Of a stretch of 29,509 nucleotides of DNA, positions 14,536-20,687 are shown piece after piece (positions within the stretch are counted from its first letter, which is position 1; each line of letters starts with the position of its first letter). A program made the translations under genes and the position numbers. Origin of the DNA: a virus; the IMG/VR virus record IMGVR_UViG_3300002641_002026. One strand, written 5' to 3'. The notes under the pieces are model-generated. The model had not been told where the DNA came from, ran no database searches, and was given only the letters and a program-made list of their open reading frames with translations.

Positions 14536-15378
14536 TTAATACTTAATCCTTTCTAATTTGTTTTTCTTTTCTTTGTTAGATGTCATAGTATATATTGCAG
14601 TAGTTTTTATATCATTGTGTCCTAATATATCTCTTAACTCATCTAAATCAATTCCACTTTCTTTACATTTCTTAGCAAATAAATGTCGCCATGCATGAGG
14701 ATGTATTTTGTTAGGATTTATTTTTGCCGACTTAGATATTTTTTTTAATCTTCGCCAAATAGTACTATTATTTAACATCTGACCTTTTTTTACTGGACTA
14801 ACAAATATATAGCCACTCTTAATCTTATTTTCTTTACAATAATTCTTTAATTCTCTTCTTAATTCGTTAGTCATAATAAGAGTTCTTTCCTTACCTTTGT
14901 TGTAAGCACCTTTTATAAAATTACTATCTAGCGATTCTACTGTGAAATACTTTAATTCATCTATTCTTGCTCCTGAATGAGCAAATACTTTAATTATGTA
15001 ATACATATCCATCATATTTAATTTTTTTGCCCATCTTAGCATTCTTTTATGTTCTTGTTCCCATATAGGGTCATCAATAGATGTTTTTTGTTGTTCTTTA
15101 AATTTCTTTAATGTGCAATTATCTAATTTTAAATATTTTAAAAATTTATTAATTATAACAATGTATTTATTTTTTGATTTAACTTTAAATCCTTTTTCAG
15201 TTAAATCTTCTTTAAAATCTATCATCAGACTTTTTGTTATTTCAAATTCATCAGGCAAGAAGTCAATTAACTTATTAACTGCATTTCTATAATCAACTAT
15301 TGTTCTTCTTGATTTTTCATCTAATCTTTCAGTATCAATAAAATTATCTAATTCTTTTTTTATTGATTCTTTAGTCAT
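14536..15378 (-). CDS. Tyrosine site-specific recombinase (Xer/phage-integrase family)
   Basis: 280 aa. The catalytic set is readable: GARIDEL (Arg), HPHAWRH (His-x-x-Arg), LGHNDIKTT (His) and AIYT (Tyr). There is an N-terminal SAM-like core-binding domain. Confidence 0.88.
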   Translation of the reverse strand: MTKESIKKELDNFIDTERLDEKSRRTIVDYRNAVNKLIDFLPDEFEITKSLMIDFKEDLTEKGFKVKSKNKYIVIINKFLKYLKLDNCTLKKFKEQQKTSIDDPIWEQEHKRMLRWAKKLNMMDMYYIIKVFAHSGARIDELKYFTVESLDSNFIKGAYNKGKERTLIMTNELRRELKNYCKENKIKSGYIFVSPVKKGQMLNNSTIWRRLKKISKSAKINPNKIHPHAWRHLFAKKCKESGIDLDELRDILGHNDIKTTAIYTMTSNKEKKNKLERIKY

Positions 15379-17387: not shown

Positions 17388-17630
17388 CTAAACCTCCTCT
17401 ATATCTTTTGTTAAGTGATAAATAGCATAATTAGTCATGTGACCATATCTATTTTTACCTTGTATCATTTCAGTTTCTATGCCGAATCCTCTTTCTCGTA
17501 AAATATATATTATTCCTGAAAGTCTTGTAGCACCATATTTTTTAATAGCCTCATATGATGTAATTGTTTTATATTTTCTTAAGTGCTTAATTACATCACT
17601 GATTTGGCTTTTATTATTTGTTGCAAACAT
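17388..17630 (-). CDS. Winged-helix/HTH DNA-binding protein
   Basis: The pattern ITSYEAIKKYGATRLSGIIYILRERGFGIETEM...NRYGHMTNYAIY is typical of small phage wHTH proteins. The likely start is MFATNN behind GGAG. Confidence 0.65.
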   Translation of the reverse strand: MFATNNKSQISDVIKHLRKYKTITSYEAIKKYGATRLSGIIYILRERGFGIETEMIQGKNRYGHMTNYAIYHLTKDIEEV

Positions 17631-17820
17631 AATATTTTTCTCCATCGTTTCCATATGTTGCAATAATTCCATATCCTTGTTCTGAACATTCTTTTGACAC
17701 TCTTTCTATATGTCTTTCTTCATCAGCATTTACTTTTTGTATTAATCCAACTAATACTATTGTTAAAACTATTGTAATTAATGAGTATACTACCCATGAT
17801 TTTAATTTTCTTCTTTTCAT
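17614..17820 (-). CDS. Small membrane-anchored protein
   Basis: 68 aa with TM helix VVYSLITIVLTIVLVGLI. Confidence 0.55.
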   Translation of the reverse strand: MKRRKLKSWVVYSLITIVLTIVLVGLIQKVNADEERHIERVSKECSEQGYGIIATYGNDGEKYYVCNK

Positions 17821-17921
17821 TCTTTTTTTCCTCTTTTCTTAATTTTATATTTAACTTTTATGTTTTCCTGTTTTTCATAAAGTTCTATAAGTTTTTTTAA
17901 GAGGCTTTTTTCATCTATCAT
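17817..17921 (-). CDS. Small basic ORF (34 aa), not in the ORF track
   Basis: I translated MIDEKSLLKKLIELYEKQENIKVKYKIKKRGKKE behind AAGGAGG. Its ATGA overlaps the next gene. Confidence 0.4.
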   Translation of the reverse strand: MIDEKSLLKKLIELYEKQENIKVKYKIKKRGKKE

Positions 17922-17930
17922 AAAAATCCT

Positions 17931-17963
17931 CCTTATTTTGTTTGCTTAGTTTGTCGACTAATT
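17931..17963. repeat. Inverted repeat, left arm (IR-L), flanking the immunity cassette
   Basis: The reverse complement reads AATTAGTCGACAAACTAAGCAAACAAAATAAGG and matches 19052-19084 at 31/33 positions. Confidence 0.9.
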
Positions 17964-18155
17964 ATTTTTTATTTCAAATAGATAATCAATTGTTGAATTT
18001 AACCATATGGCTATCTTTTTACATTCAATTAACTTAAAATCCCTAATTCCATTCATTTTGTTGCTAATTGTTGATTTGTTTAGATTTAATAATTTACACA
18101 AATCATTTTGAGTTAATCCATTTCTTGTTAATTCTGCCTCAAGATTCTTATACAT
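17958..18155 (-). CDS. Cro-like XRE-family HTH regulator
   Basis: LTQNDLCKLLNLNKSTISNKMNG is an HTH. The gene is divergent from the repressor gene. The likely start is MYKNLEAEL; the ORF track uses GTG at 18179. Confidence 0.8.
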   Translation of the reverse strand: MYKNLEAELTRNGLTQNDLCKLLNLNKSTISNKMNGIRDFKLIECKKIAIWLNSTIDYLFEIKNN

Positions 18156-18179
18156 TCTTTCAATAAATCCTCCTTTCAC

Positions 18180-18227
18180 GATACGATACTCCGTATCTTT
18201 AATTTGATTATATTACGAGGTTTCGTA
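18180..18227. promoter_or_regulatory. Candidate operator palindromes in the switch region
   Basis: GATACG-N6-CGTATC lies at 18180-18197 and TACGA-N4-TCGTA at 18214-18227. Extra CGTAT half-sites occur near 18266 and 18306. Confidence 0.55.
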
Positions 18228-18236
18228 TTTTGTCAA
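18207..18236 (-). promoter_or_regulatory. Leftward early promoter (PR-like)
   Basis: Minus strand: TTGACA, 18-nt spacer, TATAAT. The spacer contains the TACGAAACCTCGTA palindrome. Confidence 0.65.
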
Positions 18237-18276
18237 CACCTTTTTGTAAAAATAATATGTTTTTTCGTATTTTGTG

Positions 18277-18305
18277 TTTACAAGTGTATAGTCGAGGTGT
18301 ATAAT
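18277..18305 (+). promoter_or_regulatory. Rightward repressor promoter
   Basis: TTTACA, 17-nt spacer, TATAAT, followed by RBS GGAGGTG and ATG at 18332. Confidence 0.65.
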
Positions 18306-18331
18306 CGTATTATATATATAGGAGGTGCATT

Positions 18332-18985
18332 ATGAATTTTAATGATAAAGTTGACAAATATATGAAAGAACATGACATCAAAGATTTAAAAAGATTAGCC
18401 ACTTTATCTGATATACCCTATACTACTTTGAGAGATTTTTACAATAAAAAAAGTGCCGATAATTCTAGATTATCGACAATTAGGAAGTTATCAGAGTATA
18501 TGAAATGTTCACTAGATTACCTCGCCTTTGATGAAAATATGGTATTTGATAATGCTGAGATTCTTTCAACTCCTAGCGAAATTGTTTCAATACCTATTTA
18601 TGGAACGATTAAAGCAGGTATTCCACTTGAAAGTCAAACTGATATAATTGAATACATGGATATACCAAAAGACTGGACTAAAGGAAATAAAAAGTTATTT
18701 GGATTGAGAATTAGTGGTGATAGCATGTATCCTAAATATCAAGATGGAGAAAAAGTAATCTTTGAACAAACTAATGATTTAGAATCATATAAAAATAAAG
18801 ATTGTGCAGTAATGGTTAATCATACTGAATCAACTTTTAAAAAAGTTATAATAAAAGAAAGTGGTATGTTATTACAACCTTATAATAGTAATTATGATAT
18901 TATGACTTTTACAAATGAAGAAATAAATAATTTACCAATAACAATTCTAGGTGTTGCTAGAAAAAAAGTAAGTGACATTGAATAA
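18332..18985 (+). CDS. CI/LexA-like repressor (XRE HTH plus S24 autopeptidase domain)
   Basis: N-terminal HTH, and a C-terminal domain with GTIKAGIP, GDSMYP (catalytic Ser) and FKKV (Lys). Confidence 0.9.
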   Translation: MNFNDKVDKYMKEHDIKDLKRLATLSDIPYTTLRDFYNKKSADNSRLSTIRKLSEYMKCSLDYLAFDENMVFDNAEILSTPSEIVSIPIYGTIKAGIPLESQTDIIEYMDIPKDWTKGNKKLFGLRISGDSMYPKYQDGEKVIFEQTNDLESYKNKDCAVMVNHTESTFKKVIIKESGMLLQPYNSNYDIMTFTNEEINNLPITILGVARKKVSDIE

Positions 18986-19012
18986 AATAATATAATTTAT
19001 AGCACAAAAAAA

Positions 19013-19036
19013 GACTTACTGCAGGAACAGTAAGCC
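19013..19036. terminator. Hairpin downstream of the repressor gene (better terminator on the minus strand)
   Basis: GACTTACTG-CAGGAA-CAGTAAGCC. An A7 run precedes it on the plus strand, which gives a T7 run after it on the minus strand. Confidence 0.5.
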
Positions 19037-19051
19037 AATTTGAAAAATCAC

Positions 19052-19084
19052 AATTAGTCGACAAACTAAAAAAACAAAATAAGG
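19052..19084. repeat. Inverted repeat, right arm (IR-R), flanking the immunity cassette
   Basis: AATTAGTCGACAAACTAAAAAAACAAAATAAGG. The first 18 nt are perfect, followed by 2 mismatches and then 13 matches against IR-L. Confidence 0.9.
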
Positions 19085-19155
19085 TTATAATGTTTTTGGA
19101 TTTTTCTATTACATTATAACAAATTTTCACTAAAAAGAAAAGAGGTTATAATAAA

Positions 19156-20556
19156 ATGAATAAAATAATTAGAGTCGCAATTTACATTAGAGTATCTACT
19201 GATGAACAAGCAAAACATGGGTATTCTATTGATAGTCAAACTCAAAGATTAAAATCATATGCAAAGGAAAAAGGATATAAAATATATAAAATATATGCCG
19301 ATGAGGGAAAGTCTGCTCGAAGTAATATTTCGGCTAGAAAAGAACTATTAAATTTACTTAATGATGTTAGACAACATAAAGTTGATAGAATAATATTTTG
19401 GAGATTAGATAGATGGTTTAGAAATATTCAAGATTATTATAAAGTTCAAGAAATATTGGATAAAAATAATGTAGATTGGGAATGTACGGATGAAGAATAT
19501 AATACTACTACATCAAATGGAAGATTATATCTTAATATTAAATTATCTATTGCCCAAAACGAATCTGACCAAACAGGAGATAGAATTAGATTCAATTTTG
19601 AAAACATGATTAAAAATAAAAAAGCAATTATTGGAACAAGGAATTGTCCAATAGGATATAAGGTTGAGGGAACACCAAAAGATAAACATATAGTTAAGAA
19701 TCCTGATGATGAAGATTTTATTAATGACTTGTTTTCAAAATATATTGATACAATGAGTATAAATGCTACTACAAAGTTTTTATCAGAAAAATATCCTAAT
19801 TATCATTTTGTTTATAGAAGTATAAGGAATATATTAACTAATCCCCTCTTCTATGGTTGCTACAGAGATGTAGAAAATTATTGTGAACCATATTTAACAA
19901 AAAAAGAGTGGGATAATATTCAAAACATATTAAAAACTAAAAATCAAAAATGTAAAACAGGCAAAGTAAGAGATTATATTTTTACTGGTTTATTAACTTG
20001 CCCTGAATGTGGTCGAAGATTAGGTGCTAATGGAAGTGTAAGAACAAGACCAAATGGTGAAACTTATACTAGGGCTAATTATAGATGCCCAAAACACTGG
20101 ACTGATGGGCAGTGTTCAAATAAAAGAGTATTACAAGAAAATTTAATAGAGGAATGGTTATTAAATAACTATAAGCAATTATTACAGGAATATATATATC
20201 AAGTTGATGAAATTAAAGAACAAATTGAAAAGAAAGACAATTCAAAAAAAATTAAAAATTTAGAGGAGAAAGTTAGTAGATTAAATGAATTATATATAGA
20301 TGGATTAATTGATAGAAAGAAATATGATGAGGATAGATTAAGATATACTAATGAAATTAATAATTTAAAACAAACAATTGAAGATGTATCAAATGTGGAT
20401 ATTGAAAATATAAAAAATATTATTAATGACTCTACCCCATTAGAAATATATAAAGAATTATCTATTGCTAATAAAAGGGCTTTTTGGAATAGTTTTATTG
20501 ATAGAATAGTATTTTGTGGAAATAGAGATTATGATTTCATAGTCTATTTAAAATAA
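19156..20556 (+). CDS. Large serine recombinase (phage integrase)
   Basis: 466 aa. Resolvase catalytic N-domain VAIYIRVSTDEQ, a recombinase domain, a zinc ribbon CPECGRRL...YRCPKHW and a C-terminal coiled coil. Confidence 0.92.
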   Translation: MNKIIRVAIYIRVSTDEQAKHGYSIDSQTQRLKSYAKEKGYKIYKIYADEGKSARSNISARKELLNLLNDVRQHKVDRIIFWRLDRWFRNIQDYYKVQEILDKNNVDWECTDEEYNTTTSNGRLYLNIKLSIAQNESDQTGDRIRFNFENMIKNKKAIIGTRNCPIGYKVEGTPKDKHIVKNPDDEDFINDLFSKYIDTMSINATTKFLSEKYPNYHFVYRSIRNILTNPLFYGCYRDVENYCEPYLTKKEWDNIQNILKTKNQKCKTGKVRDYIFTGLLTCPECGRRLGANGSVRTRPNGETYTRANYRCPKHWTDGQCSNKRVLQENLIEEWLLNNYKQLLQEYIYQVDEIKEQIEKKDNSKKIKNLEEKVSRLNELYIDGLIDRKKYDEDRLRYTNEINNLKQTIEDVSNVDIENIKNIINDSTPLEIYKELSIANKRAFWNSFIDRIVFCGNRDYDFIVYLK

Positions 20557-20562
20557 ATGCTG

Positions 20563-20610
20563 GGCTTACTAACATACTATCTCCTTTCGGCAAGTGTGAT
20601 TTAGTAAGCC
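20563..20610. other. Candidate attP
   Basis: Perfect 10-bp inverted arms GGCTTACTAA / TTAGTAAGCC flank a 28-bp, relatively GC-rich core. The element starts 7 bp after the integrase stop. Confidence 0.35.
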
Positions 20611-20646
20611 AAAAAAAAGAAGTCAGATATTACTCTGACTTTTGTT
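20611..20646. terminator. Bidirectional terminator between the integrase and endolysin genes
   Basis: AGTCAGA-TATTAC-TCTGACT is flanked by an A8 run on one side and TTTG on the other. Confidence 0.7.
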
Positions 20647-20687
20647 ATATATTATAATTTTTGTTAAATTTTTCAAATAAAAAAATA

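Follow-up and report, generated by a model that had tools for sequence, protein, structure and literature searches.

To our knowledge, nearly all RNA-level control of the lysis-lysogeny decision is known from a few Gram-negative phages, through lambda OOP, P22 sar, P1 c4, and the P4 CI RNA. These appear to be the closest analogues of a small RNA (sRNA) that we predict beside the immunity cassette of an uncultured virus. In P1 and P7, the c4 antisense RNA controls icd-ant as part of the immI secondary immunity system (reviewed in PMC12197685). As with c4, a small phage RNA would pair with the ribosome-binding region of a lytic-pathway transcript from a different DNA stretch, and short complementary segments that differ and co-vary among related phages would set its specificity, giving an immunity layer (here a predicted one) beyond the protein repressor. 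However, c4 is processed from its target's own transcript, on the same strand and just upstream, and it regulates an antirepressor in Gram-negative phage-plasmids. By contrast, the predicted sRNA would have its own promoter and terminator, would lie on the opposite strand across the cro/repressor cassette and beside a serine integrase, and would target the first gene after cro; an Rfam scan found no sequence or structure match to c4.

The CI RNA of satellite phage P4 (seqB with seqA/seqC) likewise confers immunity through an sRNA that pairs with a nascent early transcript, turning downstream replication genes off. Yet it is cut from the early leader transcript and acts by premature transcription termination, and P4 has no CI-type protein repressor, whereas our locus encodes both a CI/LexA-type repressor and cro, with the RNA encoded separately. 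Lambda OOP and P22 sar are, like the predicted sRNA, short (~70-100 nt) and equipped with their own promoter and intrinsic terminator. OOP pairs near the gene following cro (cII), and sar pairs over a ribosome-binding site (ant), so the target proposed here is comparable; duplex-dependent cleavage is known for OOP. Both, however, are cis-antisense RNAs from the opposite strand of their target locus, for which complementarity is automatic. Here, regulator and target would lie at least 1.1 kb apart, so their complementarity must be kept by selection and therefore appears as a co-varying inverted repeat. Short inverted repeats also flank the regulatory segment of the Hin/Gin/Cin, fim, and C. difficile RecV switches, but at our locus only one orientation was found, no cognate recombinase accompanies the repeats, and their sequence does not track either recombinase of the window.

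We analyzed a 29,509-nucleotide stretch of viral DNA (IMG/VR record IMGVR_UViG_3300002641_002026; hereafter "the window"), in which a first-pass annotation had described inverted repeats around the cro/repressor cassette. Its relevant genes, signals, and repeat arms are as follows:

14536-15378, minus: tyrosine recombinase (PF00589)
17817..17921, minus: 34-aa open reading frame (ORF) from the ORF list, first gene after cro and likely regulated gene
17931-17963, minus-strand sense: left arm (IR-L)
17958..18179, minus: cro-like helix-turn-helix gene (PF01381 HTH_3; PHROG transcriptional repressor families)
18180..18331, both strands: divergent promoters and three operators
18182, 18214, and 18256: operators TACGA-N4-TCGTA
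18236..18207, minus: PR-like promoter
18277..18305, plus: repressor promoter
18332..18985, plus: CI/LexA-type repressor (helix-turn-helix and Peptidase_S24)
19052-19084: right arm (IR-R)
19156..20556, plus: large serine integrase (Pfam Resolvase, Recombinase, and Zn_ribbon_recom)

The arm coordinates were confirmed, and so was the match: both arms read AATTAGTCGACAAACTAA-NN-AAACAAAATAAGG (IR-R on the plus strand), with 31/33 positions identical and the first 18 perfect. Each arm of the window contains TTAGT-N6-ACTAA together with GTCGAC. The repeat search stretches the pair to 40 nt at 88% identity (17931-17970 / 19045-19084), and allowing gaps lengthens it to ~49 nt (42 identities). IR-L takes in the cro-like gene's stop codon (TAG, 17958-17960) and reaches into the Shine-Dalgarno AAGGAGG of the 34-aa ORF, covering its first 4 nt. 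IR-R begins 66 nt past the repressor stop (18985), and its far end is 72 nt short of the integrase ATG (19156). The "extra tyrosine recombinase" of the first-pass annotation is present, as is the integrase beyond the right arm, although the latter proved to be a large serine recombinase. Translational coupling is suggested by the overlap between the stop of the 34-aa ORF and the start of the ORF that follows (17614-17820). Small ORFs homologous to the 34-aa ORF occupy the equivalent position in relatives; Pfam and PHROG searches returned no family for it and no function for it or its neighbors. Among isolate phages, blastn detected no close relative, with the integrase alone matching, at 67%.

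The repeat is far above chance. Scored at +1/-2 over spans of up to 3 kb, it outranks every other inverted repeat in the window, at 27 against a mean of 15.3 (sd 1.2) and a maximum of 19 in 116 second-order Markov simulations. As an empirical null, the same search gave scores of 9-13 in 58 loci with only distant integrases (≤39% identity), while loci with an integrase ≥45% identical to the window's scored 15-29. The exceptions were L042, which was borderline at 13, and L028 and L036, whose contigs were too short for a second arm. Together with its recurrence in relatives, this score supports the earlier view that the repeat is functional rather than accidental.

In 18 related loci, the top inverted repeat brackets the cro/repressor cassette. 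Its core differs among lineages (GTCGAC, GTCACC, GTCGGC, GTCGCT, AGTCTAGCAAACTT, AGCTACCAAACTT, and ACTACTAAATCTAA), and both arms shift jointly. Across an 11-lineage alignment, 94.6% of cells pair and 15/22 pairs have changed on both sides, a level reached in 0/500 shuffles, while slid registers gave 0-4 double-changed pairs. We count at least ~14 specificity variants, and even L010, whose integrase is 91% identical to the window's, has quite a different arm sequence. An exact 18-mer search of viral and genome collections recovered one true relative (L001); the remaining matches were single chance matches in unrelated genomes, among them a MarR-type operator-like palindrome (L003).

The cassette between the arms is itself highly variable, at 855 to 2584 bp, with many cro/repressor types and, in some loci, extra genes (TM2, lipoproteins), whereas the flanks are conserved. 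In L018, the core repeat of the window encloses another cassette, and homology to the window begins at the inner arm edges; L038, L039, and L040 have the same arms around three different cassettes. The first-pass annotation had proposed looking in relatives for conserved arms around a variable cassette, and this is the pattern seen in L018 and L038-L040. L019 is an integrated prophage in which int is followed at its 3' end directly by bacterial genes (FtsW, def, SMC), so the predicted sRNA gene, repressor, cro, and target stay together in the lysogen. Still, arm co-variation is also expected if the arms act as DNA, whether as recombination sites or as paired protein sites. Only the strand-specific signals flanking the right arm, along with a modest wobble bias whose events are not independent, favor RNA specifically. 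The elements of the predicted sRNA and its target are:

17922..17929, minus: second, collinear pairing block, mRNA GGAUUUUU (RNAduplex)
17931..17963, minus: IR-L as predicted sRNA target on the early lytic transcript (31/33 positions complementary to the sRNA)
19003..19036, minus: Rho-independent terminator of the predicted sRNA (10-bp stem, then TTTTTTTGTG; terminator scan)
19006..19106, minus: predicted sRNA gene, ~101 nt (covariance model, fold, consensus structure)
19052-19084, sRNA on minus: IR-R as antisense (seed) segment of the predicted sRNA, CCUUAUUUUGUUUUUUUAGUUUGUCGACUAAUU
19113..19121, minus: extended -10 box of the predicted sRNA, TGTTATAAT (conserved motif; weak -35 region)

From its 5' end, the predicted sRNA would consist of GAAAAAUCC, a 13-nt spacer, the 33-nt antisense segment formed by the right arm, GUGAUUUUUC, the terminator hairpin, and a U7 tail. 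Relatives conserve a corresponding minus-strand unit of promoter box, 5' GAAAAAUCC, repeat, GAUUUUUC segment, and terminator hairpin with a U7-8 tail. The promoter box, from which the transcription start was placed, has the form TGnTA(T/C/A)AAT (n = T, C, or G) and was found on the minus strand at the matching relative position in 19/19 loci inspected. A generic promoter scan made no call here because the -35 is poor. In the window, this box lies in a DNA palindrome with a second TATAAT on the plus strand (19086-19091), so a separate role, such as that of an int promoter or operator, could account for part of its conservation.

At the other end of the unit, the hairpin past the repressor gene had been assigned to the repressor, but its U-tract is on the minus strand only, making it a minus-strand terminator instead. 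The terminator scan called it at 19036..19013 on the minus strand, as one of 3 sites in the region vs. 0.2 expected from shuffles. In the 14 aligned lineages and L042, the hairpin sequences differ, yet each is followed by a U6-8 tract, again on the minus strand only; no clean terminator position was obtained for L034 and L035. With promoter box and terminator bracketing IR-R on the minus strand, RNA made there would be complementary, not identical, to the lytic transcript, which we regard as the most likely arrangement.

The window's predicted sRNA folds with z = -4.1 vs. shuffles, and the RNAalifold consensus contains an 8-bp closing stem between the 5' and 3' ends, in which one pair covaries (UA, CG, and UG), and a terminator stem where 5/7 pairs have changed in a compensatory way. 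A covariance model built from 14 relatives had a single match in the window, at the sRNA gene (103 bits), and one full-length minus-strand match in each of 24 loci, including 8 outside the seed. All of these matches lie upstream of the integrase gene and are limited to loci with an integrase ≥45% identical to the window's; distant loci gave no match. By prediction, then, the right arm belongs to a discrete sRNA gene with a promoter and an intrinsic terminator. An Rfam 15 scan (E≤5, 17500-19400) returned noise matches only and no described RNA family, so the predicted sRNA would work like the phage antisense-RNA class while falling outside every family in that collection.

On the target side, co-variation keeps the predicted sRNA complementary, over a long stretch, to the region where translation of a lytic-pathway gene starts. 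In relatives, the target lies in the leader or first codons of the small ORF after cro, start codon included. Most lineages have it at about -45 to +30 relative to the start; in L038-L040, it spans +36 to +54 counted from the annotated start, or -45 to -27 counted from an internal ATG. The bases covered differ between lineages, and target position is thus constant in function, not in sequence. In 15/16 lineages, the predicted sRNA found its best binding partner in its own target, by RNAduplex energies that ignore intramolecular structure. Where transitions have left mismatches between the arms, pairing of lytic mRNA with minus-strand RNA would leave 7 wobble-compatible vs. 1 incompatible in the core and ~19 vs. 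7 in extended alignments, in which the events are not all independent; this modestly favors G:U wobble in antisense pairing. The second pairing block is less strongly indicated than the main one. Here, mRNA GGAUUUUU, the 3' half of the Shine-Dalgarno and the spacer to the AUG, would pair with nt 2-9 of the sRNA 5' end, forming 8 bp after a 13-nt bulge in the sRNA. In L044, this block shows a compensatory change, with mRNA GAGAUUUC facing sRNA GAAAUCUC.

We propose that the two arms are probably not a flip-switch: one would lie in a gene for a trans-acting antisense sRNA, the other in the early lytic transcript that this sRNA targets. A dedicated minus-strand promoter of the extended -10 type, a short distance upstream of the serine integrase gene, would drive a non-coding RNA of ~100 nt that ends at the Rho-independent terminator just past the repressor-side genes. 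The site it targets would be where cro meets the next gene on the early lytic transcript, 1.1 kb from the sRNA gene. That this RNA is produced and pairs with the transcript we infer from sequence. Pairing over ~33 bp and the 8-bp block by the sRNA 5' end would occlude the 34-aa ORF's ribosome-binding site, or the start codon and first codons instead in other lineages. Translation of the small ORF and its coupled genes would then be blocked, and the long duplex would probably target the polycistronic mRNA for cleavage, separating cro expression from that of the replication and early genes.

Because the sRNA gene sits in the lysogeny module and is intact in the prophage, it is presumably made in lysogens. 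There, it may form a second, RNA-based layer of immunity that damps leaky early expression, and it could also affect superinfecting phages with the same target sequence, irrespective of which repressor they encode. A pro-lysogeny direction is our guess; lambda OOP, by comparison, favors lysis.

More broadly, we see about an even chance that this locus represents an undescribed family of trans-acting antisense sRNAs in uncultured low-GC Firmicutes siphoviruses. The RNA gene would travel with a serine integrase clade and its target with the early operon, with a swappable cassette between them, and fast-diversifying specificities would amount to a second, repressor-independent immunity (incompatibility) code. 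If so, an RNA layer would sit atop the CI/Cro switch across a clade of gut and rumen Firmicutes phages, with regulator and target on opposite sides of an exchangeable immunity cassette. Cassette swapping would be tolerated because the RNA pair lies outside the swapped module. Immunity specificity might then follow two independent codes, one protein-operator and one RNA-RNA, and prophages might exclude relatives that bear a different repressor. For genome scanning, a kilobase-spaced, co-varying inverted repeat could signal a trans-antisense RNA and its target, not a recombination site.

Other readings of the repeat must be weighed against this one; of the three mechanisms put forward in the first-pass annotation, none fits unchanged. 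The arms could be paired DNA sites, perhaps looped together, for one protein encoded outside the cassette (e.g., the conserved winged-helix HTH_39 protein or a recombination directionality factor) that co-regulates the early operon and int, a reading that we consider unlikely. The TTAGT-N6-ACTAA dyad in each window-type arm would suit such a protein, several relatives encode an HTH_39 gene after the small ORF, and a co-evolving protein could make the arms co-vary. However, identity over 25-33 bp or more, at bases that depend on lineage, fits free base-pairing better. The dyad is missing from the L010, L030, and L035 types, its "spacer" co-varies in both arms, and L019 and L026 keep the repeat without a called HTH_39 gene. 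Paired protein sites would also leave unexplained the minus-strand promoter and terminator at one arm, the structural covariation, and the wobble bias.

The first-pass annotation had also suggested that the same RNA motif is present on both divergent transcripts; the appeal to RNA holds up in our analysis, while the strand is probably wrong, with a minus-strand promoter and terminator bracketing IR-R. In this nut-like (or put-like, or shared 5'-leader) arrangement, a phage or host factor would recognize a same-sense element on each transcript. The motif does have the same orientation relative to both transcription directions, and the left arm lies just past cro, like lambda nutR. Moreover, since the hairpin that follows the repressor lacks a U-tract on the plus strand, transcription could continue across IR-R toward int. 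Yet IR-R lies beyond the repressor-side genes and within the conserved minus-strand unit, the plus-sense mini-ORF there is not conserved (with an early stop in L032), and the mismatch bias favors antisense pairing over identity. The boxB-like hairpin proposed for each arm, with a 5-bp stem and a 6-nt loop, is marginal at -0.9 to -2.2 kcal/mol where found and absent from four lineages. Pfam and PHROG scans of the neighboring ORFs found no N-like gene, a class of proteins that is hard to detect, and Rfam gave no match. We consider a nut-like role improbable.

Could the arms instead be conserved linkers at the edges of mosaic modules, used for cassette exchange and similar to each other only incidentally? 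The variable cassette between conserved flanks, the L038-L040 arms, and the L018 homology from the inner arm edges are what linkers would produce, and this part of the earlier suggestion stands. However, exchange requires flank conservation between genomes, not reverse-complement flanks in one genome, and linkers leave both the inverted match and the within-genome co-variation unexplained, making this reading very unlikely.

We give least credence, and only a slight chance, to an invertible DNA switch, with the cro/repressor cassette flipped by recombination at the arms (site-specific or homologous): a perfect 18-bp inverted core exactly brackets the cassette, the window encodes two recombinases, and recombinational homogenization of the arms could mimic co-variation, but all 18 loci have the cassette in one orientation in their assemblies, and 24/24 covariance-model matches are full length and unsplit, although inversion, with the terminator inside the cassette and the promoter outside, would split the sRNA unit. 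The recombinases also fit poorly with inversion. A tyrosine recombinase was found only in the window and L014 and was not called in the ~5-7 kb early regions of L015-L018, L019-L022, L025, and L026, all of which keep the repeat. Large serine integrases do not recombine two identical sites, and the arms differ sharply even between serine integrases that are 91% identical (L010). A flipped state would, moreover, put the early operon under the repressor promoter.

Narrower roles for individual elements were also rejected. The arms are not CI/Cro operators, as TACGA-N4-TCGTA occurs only in the cro-repressor intergenic region and not at the arms, and the same arms flank differing repressor/cro types (window vs. 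L018; L038-L040). That the TTAGT-N6-ACTAA arm hairpin serves as a kissing-loop initiator is no more than a possibility, its stems being too weak and not universal. The palindrome TTATAATGT-N15-ACATTATAA between IR-R and int was rejected as attP because the L019 prophage has bacterial genes at the int 3' end and an intact repressor-to-int region. An attP at this palindrome would mean that integration separates the sRNA promoter from the sRNA body.

The window is AT-rich (26.6% GC) and, from its gene content and order, reads as a temperate siphovirus in its unintegrated form:

29509 to 20688, minus strand: tail genes, holin and endolysin
19156-20556, plus strand: large serine integrase (int)
18332-18985, plus strand: CI/LexA-type repressor
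18179 to 1, minus strand: cro, then early/replication genes, then packaging/head genes
14536-15378, minus strand: XerC/D-like tyrosine recombinase of 280 aa (PF00589), in the early region

The first-pass annotation had reported a 33-bp inverted repeat around the cro/repressor cassette, and we recovered it at the same position, with arms at 17931-17963 and 19052-19084 that are identical at 31 of 33 positions, the first 18 perfectly. An ungapped alignment lengthens the match to 40 nt (88%), and a gapped one to ~49 nt. The left arm includes the cro stop codon and terminates within the Shine-Dalgarno sequence (AAGG/AGG) of a 34-aa ORF, the gene immediately following cro; the right arm is located between the repressor gene and int. 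Among inverted repeats within 3 kb, this pair scored highest across the 29.5-kb window (score 27), compared to a mean of 15.3 (sd 1.2, maximum 19) in 116 Markov simulations. The repeat is real and biologically meaningful. The identical 18-mer also occurs upstream of a MarR-like gene in a Clostridiaceae MAG contig (CAZJHT010000040.1; L003 380-440), as part of an extended palindrome, TTAGTTTGTCGAC-N9-GCTGACAAACTAA. The site resembles an unrelated operator, and this AT-rich dyad can arise independently.

We found no close relative among isolate phage genomes, and many metagenomic loci (L numbers) were retrieved through integrase homologues. Each locus was scanned for its highest-scoring inverted repeat whose int-proximal arm lay ≤260 nt upstream of int and whose other arm lay a further 0.5-3.6 kb upstream. 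The pair recurs in relatives: scores were 15-29 where integrase identity was ≥45%, compared to 9-13 in 58 loci with only distant integrases (≤39% identity). The exceptions were L042 (13, borderline) and L028 and L036, whose contigs were too short for a second arm. Arm sequences vary by lineage, and the two arms of each lineage change jointly:

AATTAGTCGACAAACTAA: window, L014, L018
..GTCACC..: L015
ATTTAGTCGGCAAACTAA: L019
..GTCGCT..: L037
AGTCTAGCAAACTTAATACAAAAAA: L026 (25/25 positions match)
AGCTACCAAACTTAAAAAT: L038-L040 (19/19 match)
TGGAATG.AAAA...ACTACTAAATCTAA: L010
further types: L030, L032, L034, L035

When the left-arm core was aligned with the complement of the right-arm core across 11 lineages, 94.6% of cells paired and 15 of 22 pairs carried two-sided changes. 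None of 500 shuffles reached this level, and slid registers gave only 0-4 two-sided pairs. Transition mismatches almost always placed G/U in the lytic mRNA at positions with A/C on the right-arm plus strand, a pattern that amounts to G:U wobble should the mRNA pair with a minus-strand RNA. In the cores, transitions in the wobble direction outnumbered the opposite (A:C) type by 7 to 1; extended alignments gave about 19 to 7. We regard this bias as supporting rather than decisive because the events are not all independent.

A conserved minus-strand transcription unit surrounds the right arm only. Its elements, all on the minus strand, run in this order:

extended -10 box, TGnTA(T/C/A)AAT, with n = T, C or G
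conserved GAAAAAUCC, ~7 nt past the -10 box
short spacer
antisense segment (the right arm)
conserved GUGAUUUUUC segment
hairpin of lineage-specific sequence, then a U6-8 tract

For the window, the predicted product of this layout is a 101-nt RNA (about 19106 to 19006) that ends in a 10-bp stem followed by TTTTTTTGTG. The hairpin previously assigned to the repressor gene is a terminator for the minus strand, the plus strand having no U-tract. The fold of the predicted RNA is much more stable than that of shuffled sequence (z = -4.1). An RNAalifold consensus from 14 lineages contains two helices: an 8-bp helix closing the 5' end with the GAUUUUUC segment, in which one pair occurs as UA, CG and UG, and the terminator stem, with compensatory changes at five of seven pairs. 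A covariance model built from the same 14-lineage alignment and run on 63 sources (539 kb total) gave 24 matches, one per locus and all full length, on the minus strand immediately upstream of int. Eight fell outside the seed loci, none fell in the distant-integrase loci, and the sole match in the window was 19006-19106. No Rfam family matched the region, and the predicted small RNA belongs to no described family.

At the promoter end of this unit, a palindrome (TTATAATGT-N15-ACATTATAA, 19085-19121) sets a plus-strand TATAAT (19086-19091) facing the minus-strand -10 box (19113-19118), with only ~6-8 nt between the opposed predicted start sites. The plus-strand motif, which most relatives retain and which is weaker in L025, L035 and L038, may be an int promoter competing with that of the small RNA, or an operator. 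A second minus-strand terminator-like hairpin (18454-18478, a 10-bp stem then CTTTTTTTAT) lies antisense within the coding region of the repressor; it may have arisen by chance or may serve as a backstop that keeps antisense transcripts out of the switch region.

In every lineage, the left arm maps to the translation-initiation region of one and the same small ORF downstream of cro. The register shifts: the target spans -43 to -11 in the window type, including the first Shine-Dalgarno bases; the start codon and first nine or so codons in L010, L030 and L032; and codons 2-10 in L026. In the window type, nt 2-9 at the 5' end of the small RNA can additionally pair with GGAUUUUU, the remaining Shine-Dalgarno sequence and spacer. 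This second block is collinear with the main one, from which a 13-nt bulge separates it, and L044 carries a compensatory change in it. Its own target was the best predicted partner of the small RNA in 15 of 16 lineages. Where the right arm mirrors a start-codon target, a plus-sense mini-ORF appears upstream of int (L010 5617-5655, MKNPKTTKSKQK*; L030 1668-1710, plus strand). Because the L032 version stops after four codons, the mini-ORF probably arises as a side effect of complementarity and is not a conserved upstream ORF.

We consider it unlikely that both arms are a shared DNA-binding site, and slightly less likely still that they are a nut-like element read in the same sense at each arm, as had been suggested. 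Neither accounts for a promoter and terminator confined to one strand, covariation in the RNA structure, a register of complementarity that shifts or a mismatch bias toward wobble. Arms acting as repressor operators were rejected: TACGA-N4-TCGTA operators occur solely between cro and the repressor gene, and the same arms surround different repressor types.

We propose instead that a small antisense RNA, encoded beside int in the lysogeny module and driven by a constitutive promoter, would act in trans, pairing with the PR-type transcript where cro meets the early genes. Pairing would mask the ribosome-binding site upstream of the 34-aa ORF, and genes downstream are probably translationally coupled to this ORF because its stop overlaps the next start. 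The >30-bp duplex would probably also be cleaved, uncoupling cro from the replication genes. In L019 (5001-11413), an integrated prophage, FtsW/RodA, peptide deformylase (def) and SMC genes lie directly at the int 3' end, which places the attachment site on that side and leaves the small RNA gene, repressor, cro and target contiguous in the lysogen. This contiguity fits a role in lysogeny maintenance or immunity. By analogy, attP in the window is expected within the 131 bp that separate int from endolysin (20557-20687). A 77-aa ORF overlaps the int stop in L019. The direction of the effect is the weakest step, because Pfam and PHROG searches found no function for the 34-aa ORF and because lambda OOP, an antisense RNA on the gene after cro, can favor lysis.

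Between the arms, cassettes are highly mosaic, ranging from 855 to 2584 bp, with several unrelated cro/repressor types and extra genes (e.g., TM2, lipoproteins). L038, L039 and L040 share small RNA and target arms around wholly different cassettes (1761, 2584 and 2111 bp), as do L018 and the window around entirely different ones, indicating that the immunity module is swapped as a unit between conserved flanks. The terminator hairpin moves with the cassette-side gene, a TM2 gene and hairpin being common to L015 and L018. The expectation of conserved arms around a variable cassette held within such groups; arm sequence is not constant across lineages. Describing the arms as module-boundary linkers locates them correctly and leaves their mutual complementarity unexplained; as a full account, it is very unlikely.

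We give least credence to the proposed lysis-lysogeny lock by cassette inversion, since orientation was identical in 18 of 18 assembled loci (cro at the left arm, repressor side at the right), none of the 24 covariance-model matches was split, arm sequences have diverged even where the serine integrases are 91% identical, serine integrases are not known to recombine identical sites, and the tyrosine recombinase, found in the window and in L014, its 99% relative, was not called in the listed early regions of other repeat-keeping lineages (L015-L018, L019-L022, L025, L026). That separate recombinase, for which dimer resolution is one possible role, had been correctly noted; the integrase beside the right arm is of the serine, not the tyrosine, type.

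Functionally, the predicted RNA resembles the phage antisense regulators P1/P7 c4, P4 CI RNA, P22 sar and lambda OOP (PMC12197685), and its RNA/target diversity among close relatives recalls the specificity variation of P1/P7 c4. Its architecture differs in that it has its own predicted promoter, lies on the opposite strand, is separated from its target by an exchangeable immunity cassette, is linked to a serine integrase and belongs to phages of Firmicutes. A full-text literature search found no description of such a system, which does not disprove that one exists. The window has no equivalent of a reverse transcriptase gene (PF00078) that adjoins the tail genes in L025 (8031-9098; integrase 71% identical), where it suggests a diversity-generating retroelement that targets a receptor-binding protein.
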